A model generated the notes under the pieces. That model ran no database searches, was not told the DNA's origin, and saw only the letters and a list, made by a program, of their open reading frames with translations. From the IMG/VR virus record IMGVR_UViG_2923334124_000004: a stretch of 40,883 nt of DNA. One strand, written 5' to 3'. Position numbers and translations under genes: made by a program. How positions within the stretch are numbered: position 1 is the first letter of the stretch; every line of letters begins with the position of its first letter. The DNA comes from a virus (lineage: Duplodnaviria; Heunggongvirae; Uroviricota; Caudoviricetes). This document shows positions 1 through 21,441 of the stretch, in pieces.

Positions 1-390
1 TTACTCTTTTTTCTCCGTATCTGCATCGGGTTCATCAGCAAATAGCTTGCCCTGCATCCGATCCAGTTCTTCTTTTCTTACCCGCTTAACCACGCTGTAG
101 ACCCACTGAAGCGAAACACCAAATTTGCGGGCCAGTTCGTGGTGGTTGCGTCCGTTAAACTCCCTGAAGATTTCCCGGTCGCGCTGACTGACCTTCCATA
201 CCATGCCCATCGGGAAATAAACGTTTTGCCCGCCCCAGACCTGCATCATTCGGTTCGCGACGGCCTGACCAATCTGGTCGGCAACTTCGGGCTCAATATC
301 AATAATCTCGCGAACGGTCTCAGAGGTATGCTGTGCCAGTTCCACCAGGAGTTCCGGCCCCTTACTTCGAAACTGATTCAGGTCGCTCAT
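1..390 (-). CDS. mor: Mor/C-family transcriptional activator (middle/late operon regulator)
   Basis: 129 aa; C-terminal region GGQNVYFP...FNGRN..ELARKFGVS..WVYSVV is typical of Mu Mor/C activators; ATG at 388-390, stop TAA at 1-3 (minus strand). Confidence 0.65.
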   Translation of the reverse strand: MSDLNQFRSKGPELLVELAQHTSETVREIIDIEPEVADQIGQAVANRMMQVWGGQNVYFPMGMVWKVSQRDREIFREFNGRNHHELARKFGVSLQWVYSVVKRVRKEELDRMQGKLFADEPDADTEKKE

Positions 391-811
391 GTTTGACTCC
401 CGCAGCTCTGCGCTGCCACTTCTTCAGTTTCTCAATAACACTGCTTGCCTGTTCAGTACTGAGCCAGCGCAGGGCGCTGATGCCCGTTTCCCGCTTGATC
501 CACCTCGCTAATGCATTTTCTGAACGGTCACGAACAATGCCGGCAGCAGCCATTTCAAGCCATAGCGCACGAATTTTCCTGGACTGCGGATGGTTATCAA
601 GCGGTAAACCGGAGCTGGCTTTTCTGGCTGGTTTAACGCGAAAGCCTTTCTTTTTCATGGATTCCAGCACGCAGTTTAGTTGTGTGGTATCCATTCCTTT
701 GGTTGAGGCTTTACCGGTCAGCCCCTGTAACATCTGGCGGTAGGTGTCTTCATCCATACCCAGTTCATTACGGGCAATATGGATAAGCTGTATCAGGCGT
801 TTTTTCTGCAT
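362..811 (-). CDS. GemA-like protein (Mu gp16 family)
   Basis: 149 aa; position immediately upstream of mor and sequence character match Mu gp16/GemA-like proteins as I recall them; overlaps mor start by 29 nt. Confidence 0.55.
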   Translation of the reverse strand: MQKKRLIQLIHIARNELGMDEDTYRQMLQGLTGKASTKGMDTTQLNCVLESMKKKGFRVKPARKASSGLPLDNHPQSRKIRALWLEMAAAGIVRDRSENALARWIKRETGISALRWLSTEQASSVIEKLKKWQRRAAGVKHERPESVSK

Positions 812-812
812 A

Positions 813-1019
813 TCATCTCCTTTTTTTCAGTCTGTCGGCAACAATGTCGGTTGCAGCTGGCAGGGTGACTGGCCAGAACAACATGACGGCGGTCATGTAC
901 AGGATGTAATGCGCGGTGTCGTAGTGCCTGCCATAGCCCAGGGAACGATGAAGTCTTGCGCTGCATGATCCTGCGTACATATACCAGAAAAGAAAACAGA
1001 CAATGGTTTCAGTAGTCAT
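813..1019 (-). CDS. small membrane protein (hypothetical)
   Basis: ORF 813-1175 trimmed to internal ATG at 1017-1019 preceded by GGAGG; hydrophobic segments (FLFWYMYAG, ILYMTAVMLFWPV). Confidence 0.3.
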   Translation of the reverse strand: MTTETIVCFLFWYMYAGSCSARLHRSLGYGRHYDTAHYILYMTAVMLFWPVTLPAATDIVADRLKKRR

Positions 1020-1239
1020 TCTGAATACCTCCCCATTCGATATGAATATTACGGGCAGCAATGACAGGGTCGTTATTCCACCATGCACCTGACATGTATT
1101 TTTCAACCTGTTCGCGTCCGGCAATAACACCAATTGTGATCCCCGGCCTGACGTTCTTAAAAAAGGCGCGGGCAAAAAGGTATCTGGCAGATATTCGGCA
1201 GGCTTTTAATTTCCGGCTTTTACCTGATAGCGTAATCAT
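1009..1239 (-). CDS. hypothetical protein
   Basis: 76 aa ORF whose ATG overlaps the stop of the upstream gene (ATGA overlap at 1236-1239), suggesting translational coupling. Confidence 0.3.
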   Translation of the reverse strand: MITLSGKSRKLKACRISARYLFARAFFKNVRPGITIGVIAGREQVEKYMSGAWWNNDPVIAARNIHIEWGGIQNDY

Positions 1240-1919
1240 CTGGCCTCCAGTTTCTGTTGTTCCTGCCCACTGACCGGGCGGTGCAGTCTGACGTTCTGCC
1301 CTTCACGAAACCCCGCATAGCGCGAGGCGTCGCCATTGCGGCTTCTTCCCGGTTTACGCGCCCTGGTGGTTTGCGTCTGCGGGTATTTATGTTCCAGCCA
1401 CTGCTGCATCAGTTCACGCTCATCATCGGTCAGGGCAAAGGACTGTATTTCACTGATAACGGCCAGCACCCAGCCTTCGGCAAACTGGTCTCCACGGCTG
1501 GTGCGGGTGGCGGTTTTTATTCTTTTGTTCTGTGCACTGATATACTGCTGACGCGCCTTTTTCAGCTGACGGGCCAGCACTTCCCAGGTGTATGCAGCCA
1601 GTGCCGCACGTTCCCGGTTGCCGTAGAACCCCACAGACGGATGCGTGCCGGGGTGAATGATGGAGTTAACACCAAATACCTCGCGGATGATGTTCATCAG
1701 GCCCAGCATGTAGCGCGGTGGACGGAGACTGCCTGTCGGCCAGTAGTGACTGATGGTTTCATCAATATCACTCATAGCAATGTCGGAATGTGTGATGCCG
1801 TGAACATCCATCAGTTTACGGGCTCGGCGCAGTGCCAGAGCGGCCTCGTGCGGGTTGCCGGATGCGGCCAGCGCCAGCAACTTTTTCAGTTTCTCAATGT
1901 GTTTATTCTGGTCTGTCAT
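1236..1919 (-). CDS. DUF2786-like phage protein
   Basis: N-terminal KIEKLKKLLALAASGNPHEAALALRRARKLMDVHGIT resembles the DUF2786 motif; start set to ATG 1917-1919, which overlaps the upstream stop (ATGA); the track ORF extends to 1955. Confidence 0.5.
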   Translation of the reverse strand: MTDQNKHIEKLKKLLALAASGNPHEAALALRRARKLMDVHGITHSDIAMSDIDETISHYWPTGSLRPPRYMLGLMNIIREVFGVNSIIHPGTHPSVGFYGNRERAALAAYTWEVLARQLKKARQQYISAQNKRIKTATRTSRGDQFAEGWVLAVISEIQSFALTDDERELMQQWLEHKYPQTQTTRARKPGRSRNGDASRYAGFREGQNVRLHRPVSGQEQQKLEAR

Positions 1920-2131
1920 TGTTCTGTATCTCCGGTATTTTTCTGCCGTTTCCATGCCCGGACAGCGTCGGACAGCTCTTTCAGGCTGTATGCTGCTTTA
2001 AGCTTTTCCCATAACCACTGTGTTGTTATGTGCATCAGCAGGGCAGCCAGGGCTGCCCCCGCACTGAGGCATGTCGCCAGGCCAGTAAGAATCAGTGTCC
2101 ATGCGGTGATTTCCCTGAGTATGTCAGCCAT
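1916..2131 (-). CDS. small membrane protein (hypothetical)
   Basis: 71 aa with one clear hydrophobic segment (WTLILTGLATCLSAGAALAALLM). Confidence 0.4.
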   Translation of the reverse strand: MADILREITAWTLILTGLATCLSAGAALAALLMHITTQWLWEKLKAAYSLKELSDAVRAWKRQKNTGDTEQ

Positions 2132-2145
2132 TGAATGCCTCCCGG

Positions 2146-2442
2146 TTACTCGTTCGTGTAAATCACGCCCAGTCGTGCAGCCAGACGTTCCAGTTTTTTC
2201 TGTTTGTGGAAGTCAATCAGCCGGTCCATCCCCTGAAGGCGCAGTTGCTCTGTCATGATTTCCACGTCTGCCAGCTCTGCCGCGAGGTCACTTTCGCTGC
2301 CCTGTCCGTTCAGGTTGCGGGCGGCACTGGCCGCCAGTTCAGCGGCCTCTTCTGCCAGTTTCAGGGCCTGTGCGTCCGGCCCGAAACGCTGCAGGGCCAG
2401 ACGGTAGAGGGCGGTGCGGGTGAGTTCGGTGTTTCGTGTCAT
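2146..2442 (-). CDS. hypothetical protein, possibly MazG-like NTP pyrophosphohydrolase fold
   Basis: 98 aa; EEAAELAASAA...DLAAELADVEIMTEQL resembles the acidic helical motifs of MazG/HisE-like proteins; weak, by eye only. Confidence 0.35.
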   Translation of the reverse strand: MTRNTELTRTALYRLALQRFGPDAQALKLAEEAAELAASAARNLNGQGSESDLAAELADVEIMTEQLRLQGMDRLIDFHKQKKLERLAARLGVIYTNE

Positions 2443-2451
2443 GCCGCGCCC

Positions 2452-2724
2452 TCAGTGCTTCCGGCTGACGGTGATGTGCAGGCCGCCTTCTGCAGTGGTT
2501 TCCATCCGGTACGGCACCTCATGCTCTGCCGTGTGGGTGAGTGTGTTCATCAGTACCTGCAGGGCAGCCTCCTTTCCGTTGGTCGCCACAATGGCCTGTG
2601 TGGCCATGCTGATTAGCGCCGTCAGGACGTGCTTCACATCGGTGAGGTCGCGGCATTCACACTCGTTGACATAGTGTTCAACAAGGGTTCGGGTGCGCTG
2701 TCGTGCTTCCTGTGGGGTAATCAT
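2452..2724 (-). CDS. hypothetical early protein
   Basis: 90 aa ORF in the operon; start overlaps the stop of the upstream ORF. Confidence 0.4.
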   Translation of the reverse strand: MITPQEARQRTRTLVEHYVNECECRDLTDVKHVLTALISMATQAIVATNGKEAALQVLMNTLTHTAEHEVPYRMETTAEGGLHITVSRKH

Positions 2725-2915
2725 TGCGAGTCCTCCCTGTCAGGGCGGGAGAATTCCATGACGGGCACGTCTGCCGAAAAATGCTGGCTGCAGTACGGGC
2801 AGACCAGGGTGACGCGTACCGCAGGGATGTGGTATTTACCGGACATCACGGCGATGGCGCTGTGAAAACGCAGGGCTGTTATATCCCTCTCGCACTGAAT
2901 ACATTTAAATATCAT
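2721..2915 (-). CDS. zinc-ribbon protein (hypothetical)
   Basis: 64 aa with two CxxC pairs (C5/C8 and C39/C42). Confidence 0.4.
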   Translation of the reverse strand: MIFKCIQCERDITALRFHSAIAVMSGKYHIPAVRVTLVCPYCSQHFSADVPVMEFSRPDREDSQ

Positions 2916-3012
2916 GATTTAATTCTCCTCTGTTTCCGGCGTGCAGAAGCCCGCGGCGCTGACGTCGGAATAAAAAAGAAAATGTTTTTATTAAATAATT
3001 AACGTGGTGTGT

Positions 3013-3543
3013 TTACTGCACATCCTGCTCAAAAGGAATTATTGAAAAATCCTCAATGTCGCTTTTAATGGAAATACCGGGAATATTTTTCACGGCCTCT
3101 TTTTCATTCAGGATAGCGTCTTTATTTATTTCCTCTTTTACACGAATAAAGCGCTCAAGCCCCAGACGTCTCAGTAATTCAATAACATTATCCGCCCCAC
3201 GGATACTGACTGATGGCGGACGGTTTCGCCACTGCACCTCGCCGGTGGTGAGGTTAGCGAACTTCACCTTCCCGTTGCCGGTCAGTTCATCACGGTGTGC
3301 CTCACACCATGTCTGAATACCGGACTGCAGTTCGGCCATGCGTTTTTTCAGGCTCTCGGTGAGCGGGGCATAACGTGCGGTGATATCGCCAATGGCGTCA
3401 TTCATTTCTGTTTCAGCCCTGACCAGTTCACGTTGTGCGTCACCGAGTAGTCTGATTCCCTCAATGACCTCTTCACGTGTCCCCGGCACCCAGAGTGCTG
3501 CTGCGGCCTTGATACGTTTTGCACCTTTTGTACTTTTTGCCAT
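3013..3543 (-). CDS. gam: host-nuclease inhibitor Gam-like protein
   Basis: 176 aa; size, position downstream of the B-like gene, and sequence character fit Mu Gam. Confidence 0.7.
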   Translation of the reverse strand: MAKSTKGAKRIKAAAALWVPGTREEVIEGIRLLGDAQRELVRAETEMNDAIGDITARYAPLTESLKKRMAELQSGIQTWCEAHRDELTGNGKVKFANLTTGEVQWRNRPPSVSIRGADNVIELLRRLGLERFIRVKEEINKDAILNEKEAVKNIPGISIKSDIEDFSIIPFEQDVQ

Positions 3544-3570
3544 TTTTTATGATTTCTCCAGTTGTGCTGA

Positions 3571-3840
3571 TTACCACAAAGATTCCGGCCACACGACGCG
3601 ACAGCCGTGCAGTTCGAAAACGCCCTGACGGAAATATCCCCTGTGGTCATGTCCGGTATACAGATAACAGGCCTTTCCCTGCTCAAGCATGCGCATGCAA
3701 TGCGCACTCCGGGAAACGCGGATGACAGGTTTGTTACCCCTGATGGTGATGCTTTGTACATCCGTGTTCGTCGCCTTAAGCGCCATAATGGCTGACTGCA
3801 CTTTGCTGATTTGCTGGTTGATACCTGTGGTGGATTTCAT
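3571..3840 (-). CDS. hypothetical protein (occupies the kil-equivalent position)
   Basis: 89 aa ORF between the B-like and gam-like genes, same strand, tightly packed. Confidence 0.4.
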   Translation of the reverse strand: MKSTTGINQQISKVQSAIMALKATNTDVQSITIRGNKPVIRVSRSAHCMRMLEQGKACYLYTGHDHRGYFRQGVFELHGCRVVWPESLW

Positions 3841-3842
3841 TA

Positions 3843-5009
3843 TTAAACCCCTTTGACAACGTCAGCGTTGACCTGTGGAACCCCGATTTCAGCGGCCAGA
3901 TTCATGGCGGCTATTACCAGGTTACTGACGGCCAGCGGATACAGCAGGCTGACCATATTTTTACGGTGACTTCCCGGATTGCTCAGGCGGGCACGTATGG
4001 CATCCACTGCACCGGCGTCCATAATGTCCGTCAGCTGTTTACCGGCCCGTTGCAGTTTGAACGTCAGAAATTCTTCAAGGTTATTGTCCAGAGGCAGAAG
4101 TTCGACCACCTCACAGCGCTGAACGACTTCACGGACTTCCATATTGCGTTCAGACAGTTTTGTCGCCAGTTCCGGCTGGCCAATCAGCACGATGGACAGC
4201 AGTTTTTTGAAACCGGACTCCAGCTCAAAAAAGCGTTTGAGGTGTTTCAGTGTCGGAATGGGCAGACTGTGGGCCTCCTCAATCACCAGAACGTGGCTGA
4301 ACCCCGCCTGGCTGCTGTCTTTCAGGACGCGATGCAACTGGCGAAAACGGGCGTCCTGACTGCGTCTGATGCTTTCCAGTGGTGCGATGGTACTGATAAT
4401 GGCTTCGGCAATAGCTGCTGCCTTCAGGGTTTTCCCTTTCACATCGTTGTCTTCCATAGCGATGATGTATGGCTCGATAACAATTACCGGCGCATTCTCG
4501 CGGTTGATACGTTCAGTCAGGTCGCGGCGCAGCGTGGATTTACCCGCACCGGACTCACCGATGACGGCCATAAACCCACCATGACGGGCTGTCTGGTACA
4601 GCGCCTCACGCACGTAGCGAATGTCCGGGGTGGTGAACACATCATCAGAACCCTGCATGGCTTCGTCGGCGAACGGGTCACGGAAAAGACCAAACGCTTT
4701 TTTGGTTGCTGGAAATAACACCTGTTTTTTGAGTAACATATTCTCTTCCTCACTGAGGCTCGTTTTATCTGTGGTACCCGCTGTACGGGGCGTGGCCGCG
4801 CCCTGTACAGCATCAAAACTCTTCGTTGTATCAATCCCCTGACTTTCCAGCCAGGACGCAAGACGCCGGCGCACTTCTCCGGGGCTGGTGCGGGGCCACG
4901 CGTTATGATTCACAATCTGGGCCAGCGTGGCCTCAGAAACATCGACAGCTCTCGCCACCACCGCCTGTGGAATACGGGCCTCTTTCAGTTGCTGCTTCAG
5001 TACCAGCAT
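3843..5009 (-). CDS. MuB-like transposition ATPase (AAA+)
   Basis: Walker A IGESGAGKST; immediately downstream of the transposase; start set to ATG 5007-5009 preceded by AGGAGG (the track ORF begins at an upstream GTG, 5048). Confidence 0.8.
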   Translation of the reverse strand: MLVLKQQLKEARIPQAVVARAVDVSEATLAQIVNHNAWPRTSPGEVRRRLASWLESQGIDTTKSFDAVQGAATPRTAGTTDKTSLSEEENMLLKKQVLFPATKKAFGLFRDPFADEAMQGSDDVFTTPDIRYVREALYQTARHGGFMAVIGESGAGKSTLRRDLTERINRENAPVIVIEPYIIAMEDNDVKGKTLKAAAIAEAIISTIAPLESIRRSQDARFRQLHRVLKDSSQAGFSHVLVIEEAHSLPIPTLKHLKRFFELESGFKKLLSIVLIGQPELATKLSERNMEVREVVQRCEVVELLPLDNNLEEFLTFKLQRAGKQLTDIMDAGAVDAIRARLSNPGSHRKNMVSLLYPLAVSNLVIAAMNLAAEIGVPQVNADVVKGV

Positions 5010-5019
5010 GTTTCCCTCC

Positions 5020-6789
5020 TCAGTTGCCGTTAACAATGCTGATAACACTGCTGCGGGCCGGTGTGGTCAGCGTGGCCATGACTTCATCCAGTGCGGCTTC
5101 CGGTACGCCGTCCGGGTACTGTGCCGTTAACTGGCGGTAATGTTCCGGCGTCCAGGTAAGGCCGTCGGCGCTGAACTTATCGCGCAGGGCTTTCGCGGCC
5201 TCCACATGAGTCATGGGACGTTGTTCAGTGCGCGGCCCGCGTACGTCAGAGGCCTGACCACGCTTCGGCATATAGGCCGGAAGTGTGGTGTCGTCGATAT
5301 GTTTATACGGGTCAAGCCGCCCGCCGAACGGCAGCGCCTTCGCCTTGCGTGCGGCGGCTGCATCTGCGGCGTTGTCTGTACCGGTAACCAGCGCTTCGGT
5401 TTCTTTTGCCGCCATCTGTGCCGGGGTTTCCGGCAGGGCTTTGTAACTTTCGCCAAATACCGCCGCGCCTTCAGCAAAGCCAAACTCGTTCTTTCTGACC
5501 TCTTCGACCAGGAAGAACGTCTCGTGGCCGTCCTCACCGGTCAGAACCACCTGTGCCACATCGCTGCGCCATGGGTTACGGGTAATCATCAGTTTTTCAC
5601 CAACCAGTACGCCCGGTACCGTTGATACGTCAAATTCAGTGCCCCGGAACGAGACACGAAGTTTTGGCGTGACTTTGCGGAGTTCTGGTGCCGCCACAGC
5701 CAGTTCACGACATACCTCAACGGAAGGCGCTTTTTTCAGCTGCTCAGCAGTAATCTTCAGCCAGATATCCGTGCGGGTTTTACCGTGGCGGCTGTGAACA
5801 GCCGTGGCGTTAAAGTGGCTGCGCCATTTCGCGGCCAGCGCGTTGAGTTCTTCCAGACTGTGAACCGGCCGGAACTTCAGACCCGGCTCCAGCTTGCGTT
5901 CGATAATGTCACGCGCCTTTTCCACCTGTCCGGTGGCGCGGGCGTTATGCGGCTTGTGCGCTATCAGGTCGATGCCCAGTGAGCGGCACATGTTTTTCGT
6001 CATACCCGCGGTGTTTGCCGAGCCGGGGTCGAGATAGAGTATTTTCGGCACGCCGTGCAGCACGTCTGCGCCGCCACGCTCCTGCATGGCGTTGATAAGC
6101 ACAGAACACAGGTTCTCACCTGATTCCGCGCCCGTCACATACTCAACGTAAATCCAGCCGCTGGCATGGTCGGTAATCTCGTAACTCCACACGCGGTCAC
6201 TGGCGATACGGGCAAGGTTAGCGGGCTTGTTCTTGTAGAACTTCGCGCTGTCCATCACCTGCAGCCCTTTATGTCCATTGCTCAGGTAGTAAAGCGTGCA
6301 GAGTGAGGCGTCAATCTGCCAGACATGATTGGGATGCAGACTGGCCACTTCGGTATGTGGTGCAGGGGCATCCAGTTGTTCCGGGTGCAGGCCATAGTTA
6401 CGCAGAGCACGGCTGATGGCATCTTCAGACAACGGGAAAAACTCACTGGTGGTTTCATCTGTTCTGCCTGCGGTGATAAAGCCGTTAGCCCGCAGGGTTT
6501 CCACTGCATCTGCGATGGAATAGAGACGCTTACCGTTCTTGCGGGTGGCCTCACGCAGTGTGGCAGATATCAGCGCGGCTTCGTCGCGGGTCAGGGCGCT
6601 GCGCCCGGCATCGGCGCGTTTTTTGCGTTTATCAGTCACAGATACCTCCTTCAGCCTGCGCAGCAGAGTGGCGCGGGACATGCCAAGTTCAGCACAGGCA
6701 GCGTCGTATATTGCACCGCGTTTACCATGCCCCGCGTCACGTGCCGCGCGGGCTGTTTCAACCAGTTTTTCAGTCAGTGCCGGGGTCAT
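5020..6789 (-). CDS. DDE transposase, MuA-like (integrase core domain)
   Basis: 589 aa; N-terminal HTH region, integrase-core motifs (HVWQIDAS...YLDPGS), followed by the B-like ATPase; the right terminus carries Mu-like CATTTATCG repeats. Confidence 0.8.
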   Translation of the reverse strand: MTPALTEKLVETARAARDAGHGKRGAIYDAACAELGMSRATLLRRLKEVSVTDKRKKRADAGRSALTRDEAALISATLREATRKNGKRLYSIADAVETLRANGFITAGRTDETTSEFFPLSEDAISRALRNYGLHPEQLDAPAPHTEVASLHPNHVWQIDASLCTLYYLSNGHKGLQVMDSAKFYKNKPANLARIASDRVWSYEITDHASGWIYVEYVTGAESGENLCSVLINAMQERGGADVLHGVPKILYLDPGSANTAGMTKNMCRSLGIDLIAHKPHNARATGQVEKARDIIERKLEPGLKFRPVHSLEELNALAAKWRSHFNATAVHSRHGKTRTDIWLKITAEQLKKAPSVEVCRELAVAAPELRKVTPKLRVSFRGTEFDVSTVPGVLVGEKLMITRNPWRSDVAQVVLTGEDGHETFFLVEEVRKNEFGFAEGAAVFGESYKALPETPAQMAAKETEALVTGTDNAADAAAARKAKALPFGGRLDPYKHIDDTTLPAYMPKRGQASDVRGPRTEQRPMTHVEAAKALRDKFSADGLTWTPEHYRQLTAQYPDGVPEAALDEVMATLTTPARSSVISIVNGN

Positions 6790-6804
6790 AGCTTGTCTTC
6801 CCTG

Positions 6805-7122
6805 TTATCCGATTCTGGCGGCAATTTTTCTGGCGAGGTCGCACAGTGTTTCGCCATCGCAGGTTTTCACCACGGTATTTACCGGTTGCGGTGCAACTAC
6901 CGGGCGTAATGCTGACTGATTCTGCAGACGTCTTATCTGCTGCATCAGCATCACCTCCATCGTCAGTACAAACGGGTGCGTCTCCTGTGCGGGTACGCAG
7001 ATTTCACCGGAAGGGGTCACCACGCGGAAACCCTGCACCATCTCCGGCAGCAGATTACACAGTGCGTGCCCCAGTGCCTCCGGGCTGTCCATCAGGGTAT
7101 TTTGTGTGTTATTCGTATTCAT
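6805..7122 (-). CDS. hypothetical protein
   Basis: 105 aa ORF directly upstream of the transposase, same strand. Confidence 0.4.
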   Translation of the reverse strand: MNTNNTQNTLMDSPEALGHALCNLLPEMVQGFRVVTPSGEICVPAQETHPFVLTMEVMLMQQIRRLQNQSALRPVVAPQPVNTVVKTCDGETLCDLARKIAARIG

Positions 7123-8042
7123 TACTGCATATCCTCCGGTCGGTTGATTTCAGGTTCCGGTTCGGTCAGCCAGGCGGGGGCATCGTTACCCGATGGAGCG
7201 GCCTCAAGGTCAAACGTCTCACGTAATGCATGAACACTGCGTTCAATCTGGCAGACCAGACCGGCCATGAAATCTCTGGGGGTATCGATCATGTTTTTGG
7301 TGCAGTATTCACACAGGGTCTCAAAAACACTGGACAGCCGGACGGCGATAGCCGATTCGGCCTCAACCGCTAATGCCGTCACTTCCGCCCGCAATTTTTT
7401 CAGTTCTTCGTCTGGCGGCGGAGGTTGCAGGCGCGATTTCTTCTCCAGTTTTGTGGCCAGTTCGTTGATTTTTTCGTCCTTTCCGGCAAGCACCTGTTGC
7501 TGAGCTGCGTTGGTTTCGCGCGCTTCACGCAGGGCGGCCTTCAGTTCGCGGCTGGTCATGCGATCAATATCATCAAGCGTTGCACCGGCGACGGTTCCAC
7601 CATCAGCTAATGCGTCGAGTTCTTCGTCATCCAGAACCATCAGTTCATATAACTTGGTTTTTCCCAAAACGCTCAGCGCTGAGCGTTTTGGCTGTTCATC
7701 TCCATTGCCGAGAAATTTCACGCTGGCCTGCATCATGCGACGAGCTACCTGTGGTGCTAATCCGAGGTCGTTTTCCAGAATATTTGTGAAATCACCATGC
7801 GGTTCATTTTCTTTTAAGATGATCAGCCGCTTACCCGCTTCCAACATAGATTCAGCACTCTGCGCCATATAAAAACGTGCTTCGTGAACGATGCGTTCAC
7901 GTTCATAAGGCAGTCCATCACCAAACTGCTGCATGATCTCCATGCGATGCTGTGTCATGGCATTCAGGCTGACGTTGAGATCATCCGACAGCGGTACATC
8001 GGCGTTCAGTTCAGTGTTAATCGGTGATTTGGTACGTCCCAT
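7122..8042 (-). CDS. hypothetical early protein (acidic, coiled-coil rich)
   Basis: 306 aa ORF with long helical/coiled-coil stretches; no confident family assignment. Confidence 0.45.
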   Translation of the reverse strand: MGRTKSPINTELNADVPLSDDLNVSLNAMTQHRMEIMQQFGDGLPYERERIVHEARFYMAQSAESMLEAGKRLIILKENEPHGDFTNILENDLGLAPQVARRMMQASVKFLGNGDEQPKRSALSVLGKTKLYELMVLDDEELDALADGGTVAGATLDDIDRMTSRELKAALREARETNAAQQQVLAGKDEKINELATKLEKKSRLQPPPPDEELKKLRAEVTALAVEAESAIAVRLSSVFETLCEYCTKNMIDTPRDFMAGLVCQIERSVHALRETFDLEAAPSGNDAPAWLTEPEPEINRPEDMQ

Positions 8043-8052
8043 TGATTACTCC

Positions 8053-8367
8053 TTACAAACGACTACCTGAAATGACACGTTGGTTAATTTCGTTAATACG
8101 ATCCTGTGCACGTGCCATCTCGTTACTGTGGGCCATGGCGATCTGCAGTAACTGGATGCCCGGTGCAAAACGTCCGTTCTCCAGTTTCAGAGCCAGCCCT
8201 TCTTCAATGAGGGTGTTGAGTGCCCGGTTGATGTTTGCCGGTGACTCGTGCAGTGCTGTCGCCAGTTCACCGTTAGAAATACCGTTCAGGGCATGACCGC
8301 GCAGCGCTTTGAGTACCCGGAGGATGCGACTGCCGGAGCTTGAAACATTCGTCTTACTCATCTGCAT
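8053..8367 (-). CDS. winged-helix/HTH DNA-binding protein
   Basis: 104 aa; SRILRVLKAL...ISNGELATALHESPANINRALNTLIEEGL looks like an IclR/MarR-type N-terminal HTH. Confidence 0.45.
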   Translation of the reverse strand: MQMSKTNVSSSGSRILRVLKALRGHALNGISNGELATALHESPANINRALNTLIEEGLALKLENGRFAPGIQLLQIAMAHSNEMARAQDRINEINQRVISGSRL

Positions 8368-8413
8368 ACCTCTTTTGCGATATGTGATAACCTTTTACAA
8401 AGACTCAAAATAT

Positions 8414-8602
8414 TTAGGCCGCCTGAGCTGTTGATTTCAGTCCCAACTTCACGGCGATTTCATGGGATTTACCGTAACGGGCTTTGGTCTGCCCGTTGAG
8501 AACGCGGTATACCTCATTGCGGTTGTAGCCGTTTTCTTCTGCCCAGCGGGTGAAAGTGATCCCGCGCTGGCGGAAGAGAGCTTTGACTTGTTCTGCAGTC
8601 AT
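8414..8602 (-). CDS. Ner-like DNA-binding protein (Cro-like early regulator)
   Basis: 62 aa; first gene of the leftward operon, divergent from the repressor; strong SD (AAGGAGA) upstream of ATG 8600-8602; resembles Ner/Nlp-type HTH. Confidence 0.5.
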   Translation of the reverse strand: MTAEQVKALFRQRGITFTRWAEENGYNRNEVYRVLNGQTKARYGKSHEIAVKLGLKSTAQAA

Positions 8603-8654
8603 CGTTGTCTCCTTTGTTGATGCAATGATGTTTGCCTTATATGTGTTAGATTAT

Positions 8655-8672
8655 TGCTCATAATTATGAGCA
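8655..8672. promoter_or_regulatory. 18-bp perfect palindrome TGCTCATAATTATGAGCA, candidate operator
   Basis: Exact dyad symmetry in the 93-bp intergenic region between the divergent ner-like and repressor genes. Confidence 0.5.
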
Positions 8673-8695
8673 TATCAAGATAGAGATTCACTTTT

Positions 8696-9052
8696 ATGAG
8701 CAAAGATATAGGAGAGCGCGTTATTTCTGTGAGGAAGAAAGCAGGGTTGAACCAGAGAGAATTTGCAGCTCGTTTAGGTATTTCTAATGGTGGTATCAGT
8801 CAGATTGAAAATGGAAAGGCGATGCCTGGAGGGGAGTTTCTGTTAAAGATGCATCAAGAGTTTAATGTTGATGTAAATTGGTTGCTCACTGGAATGAGCA
8901 CAGATGGTATGACTAGAAACCAGAATCAAATTTCCCCAGAAAAACAAAAACTAATAGATACTTTTGACGACATGACACCAGACCAACAACGCTCATTTCT
9001 TGAGATTGGGCGATTCTATACTCAGCCAAAACCAGGAAAAATCGCAGGCTGA
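8696..9052 (+). CDS. XRE-family HTH repressor (prophage immunity repressor candidate)
   Basis: 118 aa; N-terminal NQREFAARLGISNGGISQIENGK is a classic XRE/Cro-CI HTH; divergent from the early operon; no S24 peptidase domain. Confidence 0.7.
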   Translation: MSKDIGERVISVRKKAGLNQREFAARLGISNGGISQIENGKAMPGGEFLLKMHQEFNVDVNWLLTGMSTDGMTRNQNQISPEKQKLIDTFDDMTPDQQRSFLEIGRFYTQPKPGKIAG

Positions 9053-9137
9053 TACTGACCCGGACACAAAGGACAGGTGGTTGATCTGGATGCTTTCAGA
9101 AAACATCGCCAGTGACATAGTGGAAGTTGTTTGGTTT

Positions 9138-9170
9138 ACCGGAAAGCATTGTGCTTTCCGGTTTTGTTTC
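9138..9170 (+). terminator. rho-independent terminator downstream of the repressor gene
   Basis: Stem ACCGGAAAGCA / TGCTTTCCGGT with 3-nt loop, followed by TTTGTTTC. Confidence 0.55.
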
Positions 9171-9933
9171 AGAAGTTGCAGATTAGCAGTTCACGGCGCG
9201 GCGTGGGTTTACCCGCCAGACTGTAGTTGATATTCACTGTCTGTATGTTCAGTCCAGTGAACACCTCGCGCATCTGCGGGATGTCGTTCACCGAAATTAT
9301 CATTTTTCCTCTGATGCACCGGGCCAGCTCTGCCAGCCGCGAGTAGTTCCCTTCAGGAAAATCCACACCATAGCCTTCCGTACCCAGGTACGGTGGGTCG
9401 CAGTAGAACAGCGTGTGCGGACGATCATAACGCTCAATGCACTGTTGCCAGTCCATGTGTTCTATGACTGTTCTGGAAAGCCGCAGGTGTGCCGCTGACA
9501 GTTCTTCTTCAATACGTAGCAGGTTGAAGCGTGGCGGGGATGTGGTGGAGGTACCGAAGCTGTGCTCTGCCACCTTGCCGCCAAACGCCTGCTTCTGAAG
9601 GTAGTAGAACCGTGCCGCACGCTGGATATCCGTCAGTGTTTCTTCCGGGGTGATCTGCAGCCATTTGTAGATCTGACGGCTGACCAGCGCCCATTTGAAC
9701 TGGCGGACAAATTCTTCCAGGTGATGCTTTACCACCCGGTACAGATTCACCAGTTCACCGTTGATATCATTGATGACTTCGATCTTGCCGGGTGTCTTAA
9801 GAAAATAGAGCGCTGCTGCCCCACAAAACGGCTCCACATAACATTCATGCGCCGGAAACAGCGGCAGAATGTGTTTTGCAAGGCGGCGTTTGCCACCAAT
9901 CCACGGCACGATGGGTAATGTCTGCATTTTCAT
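9169..9933 (-). CDS. Dam-family N6-adenine DNA methyltransferase
   Basis: N-terminal PWIGGKRRL...FCGAAAL (AdoMet-binding) and DPPY catalytic motif; start set to ATG 9931-9933 (the track ORF runs to 10023). Confidence 0.8.
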   Translation of the reverse strand: MKMQTLPIVPWIGGKRRLAKHILPLFPAHECYVEPFCGAAALYFLKTPGKIEVINDINGELVNLYRVVKHHLEEFVRQFKWALVSRQIYKWLQITPEETLTDIQRAARFYYLQKQAFGGKVAEHSFGTSTTSPPRFNLLRIEEELSAAHLRLSRTVIEHMDWQQCIERYDRPHTLFYCDPPYLGTEGYGVDFPEGNYSRLAELARCIRGKMIISVNDIPQMREVFTGLNIQTVNINYSLAGKPTPRRELLICNF

Positions 9934-10123
9934 AATCTGCAAGCCTTTTACAATTATTAAAAAATATGGCAGTCTGGTCAGGTCTCGCGAGACTGACTGA
10001 ACCTTGGTCGGCTCACAGCGCATTCCTGTGGGGCGATGACCAGCCCGGCTTTCGGGTGCCGGGCTGGTCGTTCTTTCATGATGCGGCAGGGATGGCGGGA
10101 TTTCTGTTAATGTGGTTTAGGGA

Positions 10124-10339
10124 TTATCCGGGGCGATTTTCTGACCTTATCCGGTCCAGGGCATAAGTAATACCTTCTGCAAAAACAGAAGTATCAAACT
10201 GCTTTTGTATTCCCTGAAAATGAAAAGCGGCACGACAGACACTCAGTTCTCCGCGGTATAACCGGATAATATCTTCCAGAACATTGTTCACTGCTTCAGC
10301 ACGGCGCTGATGTTCTGTTAACGTTAATCGGGGATTCAT
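10124..10339 (-). CDS. hypothetical protein
   Basis: 71 aa ORF; its start codon overlaps the start of the divergent ORF at 10338 (TCATGATG), so at least one of the two calls is uncertain. Confidence 0.25.
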   Translation of the reverse strand: MNPRLTLTEHQRRAEAVNNVLEDIIRLYRGELSVCRAAFHFQGIQKQFDTSVFAEGITYALDRIRSENRPG

Positions 10340-10742
10340 GATGCACTCCTTAAATGATGATTTTTATGTACTCACCGGCAAAATATTCTGCCGATTACTG
10401 AACACGCATCCGGCACCTCAGGTTTTGATTTATTCTGGTTTTTTCGATATCCCGGACCAGGTTGATCACGACCAGAAAAAGTGCCGGTGTTTTATTGATA
10501 CGCTGATATGGCTTCGGGATAACAGCTATATTCGTTACTCTCAGTTGCTGGCTGTGGGAGCGGCTGATGTCGTCCTCACGGAAAAAACGCTCTGTCTGCT
10601 CAATGCCATGCCGACCTTTCTGCAGCCCCGGCCCGTACCATTTAAAGAGTCACTTCTGGATGCAGTAAAAACCGGTGAAAATGCAGTCATCGCTGAATGC
10701 GTATCCCGGATTATGCGTTACGTGTTTAATGAACGTAAGTGA
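10338..10742 (+). CDS. hypothetical protein
   Basis: 134 aa ORF; its 3' end overlaps the 3' end of the convergent NTPase gene by 25 bp. Confidence 0.35.
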   Translation: MMHSLNDDFYVLTGKIFCRLLNTHPAPQVLIYSGFFDIPDQVDHDQKKCRCFIDTLIWLRDNSYIRYSQLLAVGAADVVLTEKTLCLLNAMPTFLQPRPVPFKESLLDAVKTGENAVIAECVSRIMRYVFNERK

Positions 10743-11446
10743 GGTTTATCCGCTGTCTGCATAATCCCGATAGCCAGTGCGAGGGGAAGTAATTCCGGGG
10801 AAACTCTTTCAAACAGCGATGCCCATTCTCCTCTCGCCATCACTCTGTCCAGCCCGCCCTCCAGTTGCATTTCAGCAATCTTCCTGATTTCCCGGAACAA
10901 CGCCGCTTTGATCTCTTCATGCTCAGCTTTATTTTCCGGTGTCAGAAGGTATTCGTCGAAGAACCGGGGAGGCTGGTTAATCGGGATGTGTTCCTGTTTG
11001 CCGTACTTCGGGGACGAACAACATTCTGTTGACTGACCAGTGAGTTTACGTAACTCCTTCATGAGCAGCTCCTGATCGTAAACTGTCATCAGTGCCGCAA
11101 TGGTGGCATGCAGTGCATCGGGCAGTATCCAGGGTTGCCGGCCCGTGGGGCATATAACATCCAGCAGCTCATTCGTCCGACAGATACGCTCCTCGCCGTA
11201 TGACAACAGGCCCTGTCCCGTGTATTCCTCCAGCCTGATCACTGTGCCAGCCCGTGGTTTCTGCCATGTGCTCAGATCATCCCCACTCATACGGCGCTCA
11301 CCGTCCACGTCTGCGGCGTCGACAATGACGCTGTTTCCGAATTCCTGTTTCACCACTTCCTCTATTCGCGCCAGTACGTAACTTTTACCGCTGCCCACAG
11401 GACCGGACACGGTGACAGTGATGACCGGATTCAGTGTCTGCGTCAT
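10718..11446 (-). CDS. P-loop NTPase / kinase-like protein (uncharacterised)
   Basis: 242 aa; Walker A GPVGSGKS near the N-terminus followed by hhhhD (VIVDAAD); no confident family assignment. Confidence 0.5.
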   Translation of the reverse strand: MTQTLNPVITVTVSGPVGSGKSYVLARIEEVVKQEFGNSVIVDAADVDGERRMSGDDLSTWQKPRAGTVIRLEEYTGQGLLSYGEERICRTNELLDVICPTGRQPWILPDALHATIAALMTVYDQELLMKELRKLTGQSTECCSSPKYGKQEHIPINQPPRFFDEYLLTPENKAEHEEIKAALFREIRKIAEMQLEGGLDRVMARGEWASLFERVSPELLPLALAIGIMQTADKPHLRSLNT

Positions 11447-11513
11447 ATCGTATTCTCCTCTGTGAATAATTCATCGTTTATCCTGCACATCCCGTATCCC
11501 CGGCTCTCTTAAC

Positions 11514-11527
11514 GCGCTTTAAAATCC
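11514..11527 (+). promoter_or_regulatory. candidate late-promoter element (GCGCTTTAAAATCC) upstream of the lysis cassette
   Basis: One of four intergenic copies of a CCTTTAwwAwC-like motif upstream of late operons. Confidence 0.3.
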
Positions 11528-11576
11528 TTCGCGCCCTGTATTTGTGATGCTGTCTCCACCAGATAAGGAGACACAC

Positions 11577-11927
11577 ATGAAAAACCTGAAAAAATTCATT
11601 CCCCCTGTTAAAAAACCTCGCCTCAGCGGCTGGCTGCTGACCTCAGTGCTGTTGCTGGGCACCATCGCTCTGGTCTCACCACAGCAGCTGCCTGTTGTGA
11701 TCTACAAGCTGGCACTCATCACGCTGGCAGCAGTGCTGGGTTACTGGCTTGACCGTTCGCTCTTCCCCAAAGCCCGTCCCGGTCAGTACCTGAAACATGA
11801 CGACAGGCTGATGGCTGAAGGGCGTTTCCCGGTACAGACCGGCCTTCACCTGGTGTTTTCTGCTGCGTTAATCCGCCGTGCACTGATTGTTGCAGCGGTC
11901 TGCCTGGCTGTTGCGATGGGGCTTTAA
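11577..11927 (+). CDS. holin-like membrane protein (putative)
   Basis: About three hydrophobic segments; directly upstream of the endolysin; start set to ATG 11577 preceded by AAGGAGA. Confidence 0.45.
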   Translation: MKNLKKFIPPVKKPRLSGWLLTSVLLLGTIALVSPQQLPVVIYKLALITLAAVLGYWLDRSLFPKARPGQYLKHDDRLMAEGRFPVQTGLHLVFSAALIRRALIVAAVCLAVAMGL

Positions 11928-11929
11928 TC

Positions 11930-12670
11930 ATGAACTGGCCGCAGATCACCTGGATTGTATGCATGTCCCTGAAACTGGCTTTCGAAGCCTTTCGGGTCTT
12001 CATCAGAACCGAACGCCTGTCAGTCCGCGCCGGGACCTTTCTGGTTCATATGGCATGGGTATTCTTTGTCGCAATGTTGCTCTGGTGTGGCGGCTTTTTC
12101 AGCCAGGCATGCGCAGCACAACCTCCGCAGGCTGCGCTGCAGTATCGCGATGATGTGATCCGTAATGCCCGGCTTGAATGGGGACTGTCTGCGCCGGTGG
12201 CCGATTTCGCCGCGCAACTGCATCAGGAAAGCGGCTGGCGACCTGATGCGATCTCGCCGGCTGGCGCTCAGGGACTGGCGCAGTTCATGCCTGCCACTGC
12301 CGACTGGATAAGCCAGTTGATACCGATGCTGAGCAGTCGTGAGCCGTTTAATCCGGCATGGGCTATCCGGGCGCTGGTCAGCTATGACCGCTGGCTGTGG
12401 CAGCGTGTCAGCGCCGCCAGTGACTGCGAGCGTATGGCCATGACACTGTCGGGCTATAACGGTGGTCTGGGCTGGGTACAACGGGACAGGCGGCTTGCAT
12501 CACAGAAAGGTCTGGACAGCACCCGCTGGTTCGGACATGTCGCCACGGTGAATGCCGGACGCAATGCGGCCAGCTGGCGGGAGAACCGCCATTATCCGCA
12601 GCGCATCCTGCGCGAACTGGCACCGCGATATCTCACATGGGGAGGCAGCAGTTGTGTGGCATCTGGTTAA
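11930..12670 (+). CDS. lytic transglycosylase (SLT-domain endolysin)
   Basis: ESGWRPDAISPAGAQGLAQFMPATADWI matches the SLT catalytic region; lies between a holin-like gene and the spanin genes. Confidence 0.7.
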   Translation: MNWPQITWIVCMSLKLAFEAFRVFIRTERLSVRAGTFLVHMAWVFFVAMLLWCGGFFSQACAAQPPQAALQYRDDVIRNARLEWGLSAPVADFAAQLHQESGWRPDAISPAGAQGLAQFMPATADWISQLIPMLSSREPFNPAWAIRALVSYDRWLWQRVSAASDCERMAMTLSGYNGGLGWVQRDRRLASQKGLDSTRWFGHVATVNAGRNAASWRENRHYPQRILRELAPRYLTWGGSSCVASG

Positions 12671-13304
12671 AAAGCTGCCGTGGCGCGGCATTCTGCTGGC
12701 CATTCTTATCAATGCCTTTCTGGTCGGCCTGTATGCCATGGGATACAGAAGTGGTCATGACTCTGCAAAGCGTGACGGTGATACCGCGCTAAGTCAGTTG
12801 CAGTCAGCATTTGACGCGTACAAAACGGAGCAGGCAACGCTTGAGAATGCTGCGCTGCGGGCCTGGGCCAGACGGTATCAGGAGCAGGTGGCCGCCGGGC
12901 AGCGGGCTGAAGCCGGTTATCTTGAGCAGATTGCTCAACTGGAGAGCCGGAACAAACAACTACAGGGGCAAATTAACGATGTCACACAGCGCTGGATTGA
13001 TGAAAAAGGTAAGAGTCATCCCATTGAGTGCGTGTTTACTCGCGGTTTCGTGCGCCAGTACAACGCCGCACTCGGATATGACAACGCATCCGTCGACACC
13101 GGTCATTCAGACTCAGTTGCCGCCACTGGCACCCGCTCTGGCACAGCGACCGGGCAACCTGAAACCACTGACACCCGGTTACGCGATTCGGGTGTCTCCC
13201 AGCGTGACGTTCTCGCCAACATCATCGACAACGCATGGCAATGTCGTCGCTGGCGGAACCAGATAAACGCGCTGCTGGATGAACGGGAAGGATTACAGAA
13301 ATGA
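12654..13304 (+). CDS. i-spanin (Rz-like)
   Basis: GTG 12654 preceded by GGAGG; N-terminal TM segment then coiled-coil rich periplasmic domain; contains an embedded +1-frame lipoprotein ORF. Confidence 0.55.
   Translation: MWHLVKKLPWRGILLAILINAFLVGLYAMGYRSGHDSAKRDGDTALSQLQSAFDAYKTEQATLENAALRAWARRYQEQVAAGQRAEAGYLEQIAQLESRNKQLQGQINDVTQRWIDEKGKSHPIECVFTRGFVRQYNAALGYDNASVDTGHSDSVAATGTRSGTATGQPETTDTRLRDSGVSQRDVLANIIDNAWQCRRWRNQINALLDEREGLQK
13000..13266 (+). CDS. o-spanin (Rz1-like lipoprotein), embedded within the i-spanin gene
   Basis: MKKVRVIPLSACLLAVSC signal/lipobox followed by a proline-rich short protein, entirely inside the Rz-like ORF in another frame. Confidence 0.55.
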   Translation: MKKVRVIPLSACLLAVSCASTTPHSDMTTHPSTPVIQTQLPPLAPALAQRPGNLKPLTPGYAIRVSPSVTFSPTSSTTHGNVVAGGTR

Positions 13305-13627
13305 CACTGCAGGTTGAATTCTGGACGGTGGTGAGTTTTCTGCTCACCTTCATGAGGTTTGTGGGAGGGCTCGCCAAATGGTTGTTCAGTAAAACAGAAG
13401 AACGCCAGGCGGCACGATTCGCCTCCCTTGAACAGGCCCTGCAACAATCCGCCTCCAACTGGGGCGAGCTGGAAAAAGAATTTATGCGATTTAAAGCGGA
13501 TTTACCGCTGAATTATGTCCGTCGAGAGGATTATATCCGTGGCCAGACAGTCATTGAGGCCAAACTGGACGCGCTTTATAACAAACTGGAAGTGGTACAG
13601 CAGTACCGCAATACCGGAGGTCAATAA
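13301..13627 (+). CDS. hypothetical membrane-anchored protein
   Basis: 108 aa; N-terminal hydrophobic segment then helical region. Confidence 0.4.
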   Translation: MTLQVEFWTVVSFLLTFMRFVGGLAKWLFSKTEERQAARFASLEQALQQSASNWGELEKEFMRFKADLPLNYVRREDYIRGQTVIEAKLDALYNKLEVVQQYRNTGGQ

Positions 13628-13938
13628 TGGTCGATATTACCCGGGTACGCCGCGAATCCCTGCGCTGGAGTCTGCTGGTTGCCCTGAACAAGACCCGCCC
13701 TTACACCGCCAGCGAGACGCTGCTGCTGGATGTGTCCCGTGCCATCTACCCGGACACCACACCGCTGGAACTGCGCCGCGAACTGGATTATCTGGCTGAC
13801 CGTAAAATGGTTGAGCTGGAGAAAAAACCTTCTGGCGACTGGTTTGCTGACCTGACCCGCCTCGGCGTAGACCTGGTGGAATACACCGTGGAATGTGGTC
13901 CGGGTATTGCCCGCCCGGAAAAGTACTGGAGTGAATAA
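13627..13938 (+). CDS. hypothetical phage protein
   Basis: 103 aa ORF translationally coupled (TAATG) to neighbours in the late operon. Confidence 0.4.
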   Translation: MVDITRVRRESLRWSLLVALNKTRPYTASETLLLDVSRAIYPDTTPLELRRELDYLADRKMVELEKKPSGDWFADLTRLGVDLVEYTVECGPGIARPEKYWSE

Positions 13939-14483
13939 TGGCCAGACGCAGCACAATAGAAAAGCTGCCGGAAGACGTGCGCCGCTGGCTTGAACGGGCG
14001 CTGACTGAATCCGGCTTCAGCGGGTATAACGAGCTGGAGTCACTGTTGCGTGAGCGGGGGTACGTCATCAGCAAATCCGCTATCCATCGCTATGGACAGA
14101 AGATTGAGCGCCGCTATGGTGCTATCCGTGCGGCAACAGAAGCGGCCCGCATGCTGACCGAAGGCGCAGCAGACGATCAGGATGCGCGTTCGGAGGCTGT
14201 GATAGCCCTTATTCAGACCGAGCTGTTCGAGAGTATTGTCCAGTTGCAGGAGGCGGAAGAAGGCGAAGTCGATCCTAAAGAACGCGTGGCCCTGCTGTCG
14301 AAGGTGGCGAAGAATGTGGCTACGCTGTCCCGCGCGTCCGTCAACCTCAAAAAGTTCCAGTCTGAAGTACGGGCCAGAGCGCAGCAGGCAGCCAGCAACG
14401 CCGAGAAAATTGCCCGTAAGGGGGGACTGTCAAGCGACGCAGTACAGGCGCTTCGTCGCGAGATTCTGGGGATTGCCACATGA
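13938..14483 (+). CDS. terminase small subunit-like protein (Mu gp27-like)
   Basis: 181 aa; position immediately upstream of the large terminase; helical, charged DNA-binding-like N-terminus. Confidence 0.5.
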   Translation: MARRSTIEKLPEDVRRWLERALTESGFSGYNELESLLRERGYVISKSAIHRYGQKIERRYGAIRAATEAARMLTEGAADDQDARSEAVIALIQTELFESIVQLQEAEEGEVDPKERVALLSKVAKNVATLSRASVNLKKFQSEVRARAQQAASNAEKIARKGGLSSDAVQALRREILGIAT

Positions 14484-14777
14484 CAAAATCATCCGGAGTG
14501 ATTTTAAACGCCGCTGGCGGCGGCCCCGAAGGGATGAGTCCCATGGACGGGAGGAATAACCTTGCTCCCGTTTTGCCTGATACCTCGGCGCTGGATGCCC
14601 CTCCCGTTCTGTTGCCTTACCAGCAGCGCTGGGTGGCAGACACCTCTCCGCTTAAGGTGATAGAAAAGAGCCGTCGTACCGGTATTACATGGGCTGAGGC
14701 ATCCGATAACGTACTGACCGCCGCCTCTTCTGCGCCAGCAGGCGGGATGAATGTGTATTACATCGCTTATAACCAGG
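14480..14777 (+). pseudogene. terminase large subunit, 5' fragment (interrupted by an IS66-family element)
   Basis: The reading frame runs into the IS at 14778; joining 14777 to 17318 restores one continuous frame (...YNQ-D-MTVEYIQ...) of about 531 codons. Confidence 0.7.
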
Positions 14778-14862
14778 GTAAGCGTAAACTGACCGCCGTA
14801 TGTAGCCATCAGACGAGAATTGGTAACTTAGACGCCCATCTGATATAGACGGACATCTAAGT

Positions 14863-15635: not shown

Positions 15636-15665
15636 AAAACTCCTGACCGCATTATAAAAACGGTC

Positions 15666-17279: not shown

Positions 17280-17317
17280 GCGTCAATACGGTGCTCCGTT
17301 GACGCTTACTAACCAGG

Positions 17318-20913: not shown

Positions 20914-20915
20914 CA

Positions 20916-21374: not shown

Positions 21375-21429
21375 GTTTTCTCTCTTCAGGCGGGTGATTT
21401 ATCATTGCCAGCGAATGAGGGGCTGTATT

Positions 21430-21441
21430 ACCTTTATAAAG
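21430..21441 (+). promoter_or_regulatory. 12-bp palindrome CCTTTATAAAGG in a 214-bp noncoding gap, candidate late-promoter/activator site
   Basis: Perfect dyad within the only large intergenic gap in the head module (21375-21588); shares the CCTTTAwwA core with three other late-operon upstream regions. Confidence 0.3.

Follow-up and report, generated by a model that had tools for sequence, protein, structure and literature searches.

A BcepMu-type transposable prophage of Escherichia coli with a divergent early operon, inserted in ycaL

In the genome of the transposable phage BcepMu, genes 1–13 occupy the bottom strand, genes 17–52 the top strand, with lysogeny control at the interface followed by the lysis cassette; the phage combines a Tn552-IS1604-type transposase with a P2-like tail and terminal CA dinucleotides and has no tail-fibre inversion system (PMC2771037). 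Prophages related to BcepMu have TG...CA termini (PMC2628397), the B3-like and Mu-like phages differ by an inversion of the early operon (PMC5977238), and Bcepmuvirus prophages in E. coli have been listed in a preprint on ST131. Here we analyse a window of 40,883 nt (one strand of IMG/VR virus record IMGVR_UViG_2923334124_000004), to which all coordinates refer unless another record is named. We conclude with high confidence that it holds a single BcepMu-type transposable myovirus prophage of Escherichia coli, with a Mu-like lifestyle, inserted in the first codons of ycaL beside aroA. Positions 1–12000 are 100% identical to Escherichia phage PhiKM (PQ738613.1; GenBank taxon Bcepmuvirus), and the window has prophage matches in 644 of 5426 complete E. 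coli genomes (~12%). The finding is thus a re-description of a known architecture in sequence already deposited, without novelty, and it leaves the current understanding of transposable phages unchallenged; its main value is for annotation.

Genes were called from a map of open reading frames (ORFs) together with Pfam and PHROG scans, and the genes of the window were compared one by one by tblastn with BcepMu (NC_005882), Mu (NC_000929) and P2 (NC_001895). On the minus strand, 17 ORFs form an unbroken run from 8602 to 1 with gaps of at most 97 bp (ORF map), beginning with a small helix–turn–helix (HTH) protein in the ner position and ending with a Mor/C-family activator, the sole locus of this family in the window, whose stop codon is the complement of positions 1–3. 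The plus strand carries an HTH_3 repressor gene (8696–9052) and then, from the holin gene (11544–11927) onward, everything except the two minus-strand tail-fibre ORFs noted below and the flanking host gene. A preliminary description of this DNA had reported a minus-strand run of ner-like through mor-like genes that stops at the window edge and is divergent from the late operon, unlike the colinear arrangement of Mu. The ORF map and the Pfam and PHROG scans bear out the run and its end, and the divergence stands as well: the early operon points toward the late genes in Mu and toward the left end here. Some of its details need qualification. The ner-like label suits the position and fold of the first gene, but Mu Ner has no BLAST match in the window. 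The placement of the repressor and all late genes on the plus strand is correct for the repressor and from the holin onward but omits the minus-strand accessory genes at 9169–11446. The proposed centre-out organization describes a real divergence, but the divergence point lies ~8.8 kb into a 37-kb genome and so is not central. Nor is the strand switch a clean two-block split, as the interval 9169–11446 holds three minus-strand genes and one plus-strand gene and two minus-strand ORFs at 37574–38670 form an alternative tail-fibre cassette. In keeping with the gene directions, AT skew is negative over 1–12 kb and mostly positive beyond, and cumulative GC skew reaches its minimum at 11–12 kb.

Comparison with BcepMu accounts for this layout. 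Thirty-six window genes have BcepMu matches that agree in order and strand, at 31–76% amino acid identity (tblastn), so that the BcepMu-type organization proposed in the preliminary description is borne out at the level of the whole genome and agrees with the published map (PMC2771037). As in BcepMu, Mor lies at the far left, the early genes are encoded by the bottom strand, and the top strand carries the repressor, lysis, head and tail genes (gp1–gp52); a Tn552/IS1604-type transposase (68%) is found with an ExeA-type ATPase (59%); a holin, SLT endolysin and Rz cassette, a Mu-like TerL and portal and a P2-like tail (sheath 76%, tube 67%) are shared; and the ends begin with TGA and carry GNGATAWWT at positions 12–20 and 35–43 of each end. 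The traits of a BcepMu-like myovirus are therefore present, namely two gene clusters, an rve transposase with an ExeA ATPase, TG...CA ends, and a Mu-like terminase and portal combined with a P2-like tail. Beyond the BcepMu plan, the E. coli phage has a Mu-type Gam, a Dam methylase, other cargo, and a Gin invertase with an invertible fibre segment, and it is without the gp53 acyltransferase (no tblastn match to that BcepMu region). The repressor shows no detectable similarity to its BcepMu counterpart, and the genes between repressor and holin differ. We regard the kinship to BcepMu as one of type and architecture, not as a close relationship.

Homology to Mu is confined to Mor, GemA, Gam, TerL, the portal, F, G, gp47, a short N-terminal tail-fibre segment and Gin. 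The element resembles Mu in its TG...CA ends, target duplication and many insertion sites, in the divergence of repressor and early operon, and in homologous Mor/C, GemA, Gam (62%), TerL (48%), portal (27%), F, G and Gin (76%) proteins; Mor itself is 54% identical to BcepMu gp1, 30% to Mu Mor and 37% to Mu C (tblastn). It differs in having a P2-like instead of a Mu-like tail and no homologue of Mu A, B, c or Ner, none of which has a window match beyond noise (tblastn, E up to 10). The target duplication of Mu is 5 bp long, whereas it is 6 bp at three sites here. With MuA, MuB, c and Ner unmatched, the early operon on the opposite strand and a 6-bp duplication, the element departs from Muvirus in the strict sense. 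Compared with Mu, the segment spanning repressor to mor sits in inverted orientation between the ends, the early operon is best regarded as analogous to that of Mu and not homologous, and the ATPase at 3843–5048 is a functional analogue of MuB. The sheath, tube, U, D, V, W, J, I and H proteins have P2 homologues (25–49% identical), but P2 is a cos-site phage with integrase-mediated integration, no transposition genes and unrelated head genes.

The ends of the prophage were mapped by aligning lysogen junctions to the empty site of K-12, followed by a genome search with flank plus end sequence. The left end was read from other lysogens identical over the compared window sequence, such as E. coli 4/1-1 (L001), which was compared with the window base by base over 14,777 bases and found identical. 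These lysogens have the left end 163 bp leftward of position 1, as the preliminary description had anticipated in placing it beyond the window, and the last phage base on the right is 39422, giving an element of 39,585 bp with its insertion sequence (IS) and 37,045 bp when the IS is discounted. In K-12 the empty site is ...AGTATTCTTCATGTGAATC..., the left junction of L001 ...AGTATTCTTC / TGATTAGACTTGAGATAAATG... and the right junction of the window ...CATTTATCGCGCGGCGCATCA / TTCTTCATGTGA... (slashes mark the phage boundary); the source genome's own left junction is expected as ...AGTATTCTTC / TGATTAGACTTGAGATAAATGACAGGG..., joining ycaL. In L001, 143 bp of non-coding sequence follow Mor, and then ycaL. 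The Mor stop codon coincides with the left window edge and the start codon of the 427-aa ORF (host gene aroA) with the right one; with both edges at gene boundaries, the window was simply cut at gene limits. We rejected TGTGA as the target duplication. The preliminary description had proposed this 5-bp repeat, with the right end directly before it, but the duplication is the 6-bp TTCTTC, as judged from the K-12 empty site and two other insertion sites, and the right end is 39422; the K-12 empty site reads ...GTATTCTTCATGTGAATC, so that TGTGA belongs to the normal host DNA, rightward of the genuine TTCTTC. TGTGA also occurs ~105 bp inside the prophage left end (L001 7942–7946), where a naive leftward search would falsely confirm it.

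Identical termini flanked by 6-bp duplications are found at three independent sites: ycaL (TTCTTC), dinG-rhlE in SF-088 (CCCTGA; a copy of 36,781 bp) and lpdA-acnB in TUM1586 (ACTTTC; 37,566 bp). The flank plus end search found the ycaL junction to be common to 357 genomes; among the matches listed, all empty-site genomes stop matching exactly at the predicted base, and in other genomes the match begins at the predicted first base or at most 3 bases from it. These exact ends and the 6-bp duplication allow correct delimitation of a very common E. coli prophage. PhiKM has a fourth, distinct left junction and flank; in its record (L002), ~340 bp unrelated to the window (20234–20576) precede the phage left end at 20577, and this stretch could be host DNA on virion ends or an assembly join. 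BcepMu-like myoviruses have random host DNA joined to both ends of the virion DNA, through replicative transposition and headful packaging, and for the present phage the PhiKM stretch is the sole hint of this trait. The termini read TGAT...ATCA, and from the tip of each end the two GNGATAWWT copies form a bipartite motif, GNGATAWWT-N14-GNGATAWWT, for which the window has just one match, on the minus strand at the right end. In constant register it recurs at both ends of BcepMu and of two other prophage copies (L007 and L008), and L001 has it at its left end. The motif has no match on the window plus strand even with 3 mismatches allowed, and the motif search likewise supports the earlier remark that the window contains no inverted, plus-strand copy of the right-terminal motif. 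The inverted terminus that the preliminary description proposed to look for further left does exist in the identical lysogens, although its motif copy reads GAGATAAATG and not GCGATAAATG. With 2 mismatches, the bipartite motif is also matched on the minus strand at 38707–38738, just upstream of the invertase gene; this match is probably due to chance (1.4 expected at ≤3 mismatches). The insertion follows nucleotide 8 of ycaL and cuts the body of the gene off from its promoter and start codon (window 39423–39435; L001 7832–7857). In RefSeq, the annotation of the rest of ycaL begins at L001 7857 with an ATT codon, 20 bases inward of the prophage left end.

Of all leftward sigma-70-like sites in the early region, the best (TTGATA at 8678–8673, 17 nt, AATAAT at 8655–8650) falls in the divergent control region. 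A perfect 18-bp palindrome at 8655–8672 (TGCTCATAATTATGAGCA, halves TGCTCATAA/TTATGAGCA) overlaps the −10 and spacer of this promoter-like site, and a third half-site (8694–8702) lies over the repressor start codon; the palindrome and half-site are candidate operators, and their layout would fit repressor control of the leftward early promoter. Within the early operon there is no intrinsic terminator above chance. Downstream of Mor we find no canonical terminator; a local hairpin is followed by UUUU, the 173-nt stretch taken as a whole has no significant fold (z −1.4), and the early operon may perhaps end at this hairpin just inside the left end. Given that the interval 9169–11446 holds further minus-strand genes and that a perfect hairpin with an 11-bp stem, terminator-like, lies at 9138–9162 between the convergent repressor and Dam genes, the repressor is probably not in one transcript with the late genes.

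For the late genes, the motif WTTAAWATC has 5 matches in the window against 0.6 expected, and its four plus-strand copies each stand in the intergenic gap ahead of a late cluster (lysis, head protease, tail chaperone and baseplate W). In the alignment, TTAA-N6-TTAAWAT is common to the sites, as is a C-rich patch upstream, and BcepMu (L004) carries the motif before its holin, protease and W genes (11494, 18821 and 30783). We suggest that the TTAA-N6-TTAAWATC elements may be activator-dependent late promoters served by Mor. Mu uses a relay from Mor through C to the late genes, whereas a single Mor/C-family gene is present here. As a tentative proposal, which we hold to be possible rather than probable, BcepMu-type phages would have a two-tier cascade in which this one activator acts in trans on four rightward TTAA-N6-TTAAWATC promoters, with the repressor-holin locus serving as a cargo slot. 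Drawing on this anatomy and on what is known of Mu and BcepMu, we envisage that the repressor would occupy the palindromic operator overlapping the leftward early promoter and that derepression would yield the early transcript and hence the transposase and ATPase. These would act at the paired GNGATAWWT sites of the TG...CA ends in replicative transposition, generating the 6-bp target duplications, and Mor, produced last, would act in trans on the four candidate rightward promoters of the lysis, head, tail and baseplate clusters.

Two oppositely oriented blocks with the mixed-orientation accessory region 9169–11446 between them could also be read as two adjacent elements, the early region (1–9 kb) deriving from a second transposable element separate from the late-gene phage. 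A left terminus inside 9053–11576, which the preliminary description had named as the sign of such a composite, was looked for, and no terminus-like motif was found there or on the plus strand with up to 3 mismatches allowed; GATAAATG occurs four times in the window and not once within 9053–11576. The absence of a terminus-like motif from this interval indicates one element. Moreover, the whole unit of 36.8–39.6 kb moves together, with 6-bp duplications at three sites, and the BcepMu virion genome is laid out alike, leaving two elements with almost no credibility. We likewise give next to no weight to the idea that a Mu-type prophage, colinear at first, was inverted in this strain or misassembled: Mu is colinear, and the DNA invertase and IS could promote rearrangement, but the orientation is constant in complete E. 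coli genomes numbering in the hundreds (window 1–12000 is covered to at least 80% in 492), at three insertion sites, and likewise in KP12, BcepMu and phiE255, and the early proteins are not homologues of Mu A, B, c or Ner. Slightly less far-fetched, though still very improbable, is a place among the B3-like (Pseudomonas) transposable siphoviruses instead of beside BcepMu. The inverted early operon is common to B3 relatives (PMC5977238), and the transposase, encoded on the minus strand near the left end, is 56% identical to that of B3. However, B3 is a siphovirus, whereas the window encodes a P2-like contractile tail whose sheath and tube are those closely matched in BcepMu, collinearity with BcepMu runs over the whole length, the transposase is nearer to that of BcepMu than to that of B3, and GenBank places the identical phage in Bcepmuvirus. 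Of the features of the B3-like class, the inverted operon and related transposase are found and the non-contractile tail is not.

Several points nevertheless weigh against a single BcepMu-type prophage in ycaL as described here. Nucleotide similarity to BcepMu is only ~20% (identity × coverage), with a blastn coverage of 29.7% and no match to BcepMu by megablast. The ICTV genus criterion is usually ~70% nucleotide identity over the genome, and on this measure the element falls outside the strict genus Bcepmuvirus, though GenBank files PhiKM there. For the left end, the sequence came from other genomes that match the window at 100% and not from upstream DNA of the source genome itself. Promoters, operators, transposase-binding sites and Mor dependence are deduced from sequence throughout, and the late-motif statistic is post hoc, as the counts were made in the very regions that had yielded the motif; the positions of the motif in BcepMu provide some independent support. 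We retain the single BcepMu-type prophage and interpret its inverted early operon as a BcepMu/B3-type hallmark, not as a rearrangement or a two-element composite.

Table. Features of the prophage and its right flank, in window coordinates
Feature	Coordinates	Strand	Evidence or remarks
Mor/C-family transcription activator, last gene of the leftward early operon	1-390	-	Pfam Mor PF08765, E 1e-43
GemA-like protein	362-811	-	Pfam GemA, E 8e-41; 44% to BcepMu gp2, 36% to Mu gp16
Seven small early genes	813-2915	-	ORF list, Pfam, PGAP annotation of identical prophage; includes DUF2786/DUF7168 protein (1236-1955)
Gam host-nuclease inhibitor	3013-3543	-	Pfam Phage_Mu_Gam, E 1e-40; 62% amino acid identity to Mu Gam
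89-aa ORF	3571-3840	-	ORF map
ExeA/AAA_22 ATPase, transposase partner	3843-5048	-	Pfam AAA_22; PHROG 296 (DNA transposition protein); 59% to BcepMu gp8
DDE (rve) transposase, BcepMu/B3 type (Tn552/IS1604-type)	5020-6789	-	Pfam rve only; 68% to BcepMu gp9, ~56% to B3 transposase
Three promoter-proximal early genes (next three rows)	6805-8367	-	Pfam and PHROGs; 39% and 33% identity to BcepMu gp10 and gp12
105-aa ORF	6805-7122	-	ORF map
DUF3102 protein	7122-8042	-	Pfam
Winged-HTH regulator	8053-8367	-	Pfam/PHROGs
First early gene, 62-aa HTH protein in ner position (BcepMu gp16 family)	8414-8602	-	PHROG 925, E 4e-33; 46% to BcepMu gp16; Pfam HTH_35 weak
Divergent control region, 93 bp	8603-8695		Candidate operators and early promoter
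HTH_3 (cI/Cro-type) immunity repressor candidate	8696-9052	+	Pfam HTH_3, E 5e-15, Phage_CI_repr; position of BcepMu gp17
Dam-family methyltransferase	9169-10023	-	Pfam, NCBIfam, PADLOC
71-aa ORF	10124-10339	-	ORF map
134-aa ORF	10338-10742	+	ORF map
242-aa P-loop-like ORF	10718-11446	-	Weak P-loop signature
Candidate late promoter element 1, upstream of holin	11509-11526	+	TTAACGCGCTTTAAAATC; motif search, alignment; BcepMu motif at orthologous position
Lysis cassette: holin, SLT-domain endolysin, Rz-like protein	11544-13304	+	Pfam Holin_2-3, SLT; 50%, 61% and 34% to BcepMu gp21-23
Packaging and head morphogenesis: Mu gp27-like TerS, TerL (IS-split), portal, F-like, G-like	13938-21374	+	Pfam Phage_Mu_Gp27; tblastn
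IS66-family insertion sequence inside TerL (not phage)	14778-17309	+	Pfam HTH_Tnp_1, TnpB_IS66, DDE_Tnp_IS66; TnpA, TnpB, 537-aa DDE transposase
Candidate late promoter element 2, upstream of head protease/scaffold gene	21516-21533	+	Motif search, alignment
Head protease/scaffold, major capsid and head-completion genes	21589-25183	+	44-53% to BcepMu gp32-38; no match to Mu at E 1e-3
P2-like contractile tail, baseplate and tail-fibre genes	25173-37095	+	P2 FI, FII, U, D, V, W, J, I, H matches, 25-49%; collinear with BcepMu gp39-52
Candidate late promoter element 3	27433-27450	+	Motif search, alignment
Candidate late promoter element 4	33784-33801	+	Motif search, alignment
Mu G-segment-like invertible tail-fibre segment	36659-38710		Three copies of ~230-nt inverted repeat
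Gin-type serine DNA invertase	38772-39344	+	Pfam Resolvase, HTH_7; 76% amino acid identity to Mu Gin
Right prophage end	39379-39422	-	Inward: TGATGCGCCGCGCGATAAATG...GCGATAAATG; right-end motif GCGATAAATG on minus strand at 39402-39411 and 39379-39388, transposase-site candidates
Right copy of 6-bp target-site duplication TTCTTC	39423-39428		K-12 empty site against L001 left junction; nucleotides 3-8 of host ycaL
Host aroA, 427-aa ORF, flanking gene outside the element	39600-40883	-	aroA and ycaL adjacent in K-12

Among the early genes, Gam has no match in BcepMu (tblastn), and an NCBIfam search with the seven small early genes at 813–2915 returned zero matches. The accessory proteins encoded between repressor and holin were additionally searched against NCBIfam, PADLOC and PDB sequences. 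The three that are not methylases match only PHROGs 4490, 2266 and 3787, all of them families of unknown function; proteins from 10124–11446 have no confident match in Pfam, NCBIfam, PADLOC or PDB sequence searches and show weak similarity to P-loop proteins and guanylate kinases (E 0.2–0.6). The block 9169–11446 and the repressor allele differ in the prophage copies L007 and L008. The repressor-holin interval would be a swappable accessory or defence (cargo) slot, for which such variation between copies would be expected.

In the late region, the preliminary description had called the head genes Mu-like and the tail genes P2-like. This is correct for the tail and, within the head module, for packaging, portal and head morphogenesis, where TerL, portal, F and G are 44–67% identical to BcepMu and 27–55% to Mu (tblastn). 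It is not correct for the head protease and major capsid protein, which have no Mu match at E 1e-3 (tblastn). TerS has no Mu match by tblastn. In the distal fibre region, inverted repeats at 36659–36887 and 37096–37326 on the plus strand are opposed by one at 38480–38710 on the minus strand, and the minus-strand ORFs at 37574–38670 encode an alternative fibre C-terminus and assembly ORFs. PhiKM is essentially identical to the window over 1–14777 and 17303–36794 (100% and 99.99% in aligned blocks), with genes and strands alike, and has no IS in TerL; its record is partial and permuted and is without window 36795–39422, which comprises the distal invertible segment, the invertase and the right end.

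The IS66-family element is flanked by an 8-bp duplication, TAACCAGG, at 14770–14777 and 17310–17317 (breakpoints relative to the IS-free copy L001), and cuts the large terminase gene into 14480–14777 and 17318–18615. Because the terminase gene is split in this way, the present prophage copy is predicted to be defective for packaging and should be unable to package DNA. Other genomes have the prophage at ycaL with ISEc23 in the early operon and not an IS in TerL; in E. coli AVS0968 (L009 3052–5468) it lies in the gene equivalent to window 2452–2724. The insertions of ISEc23 in the early operon and of the IS66-family element in TerL are independent IS hits on one resident prophage lineage.

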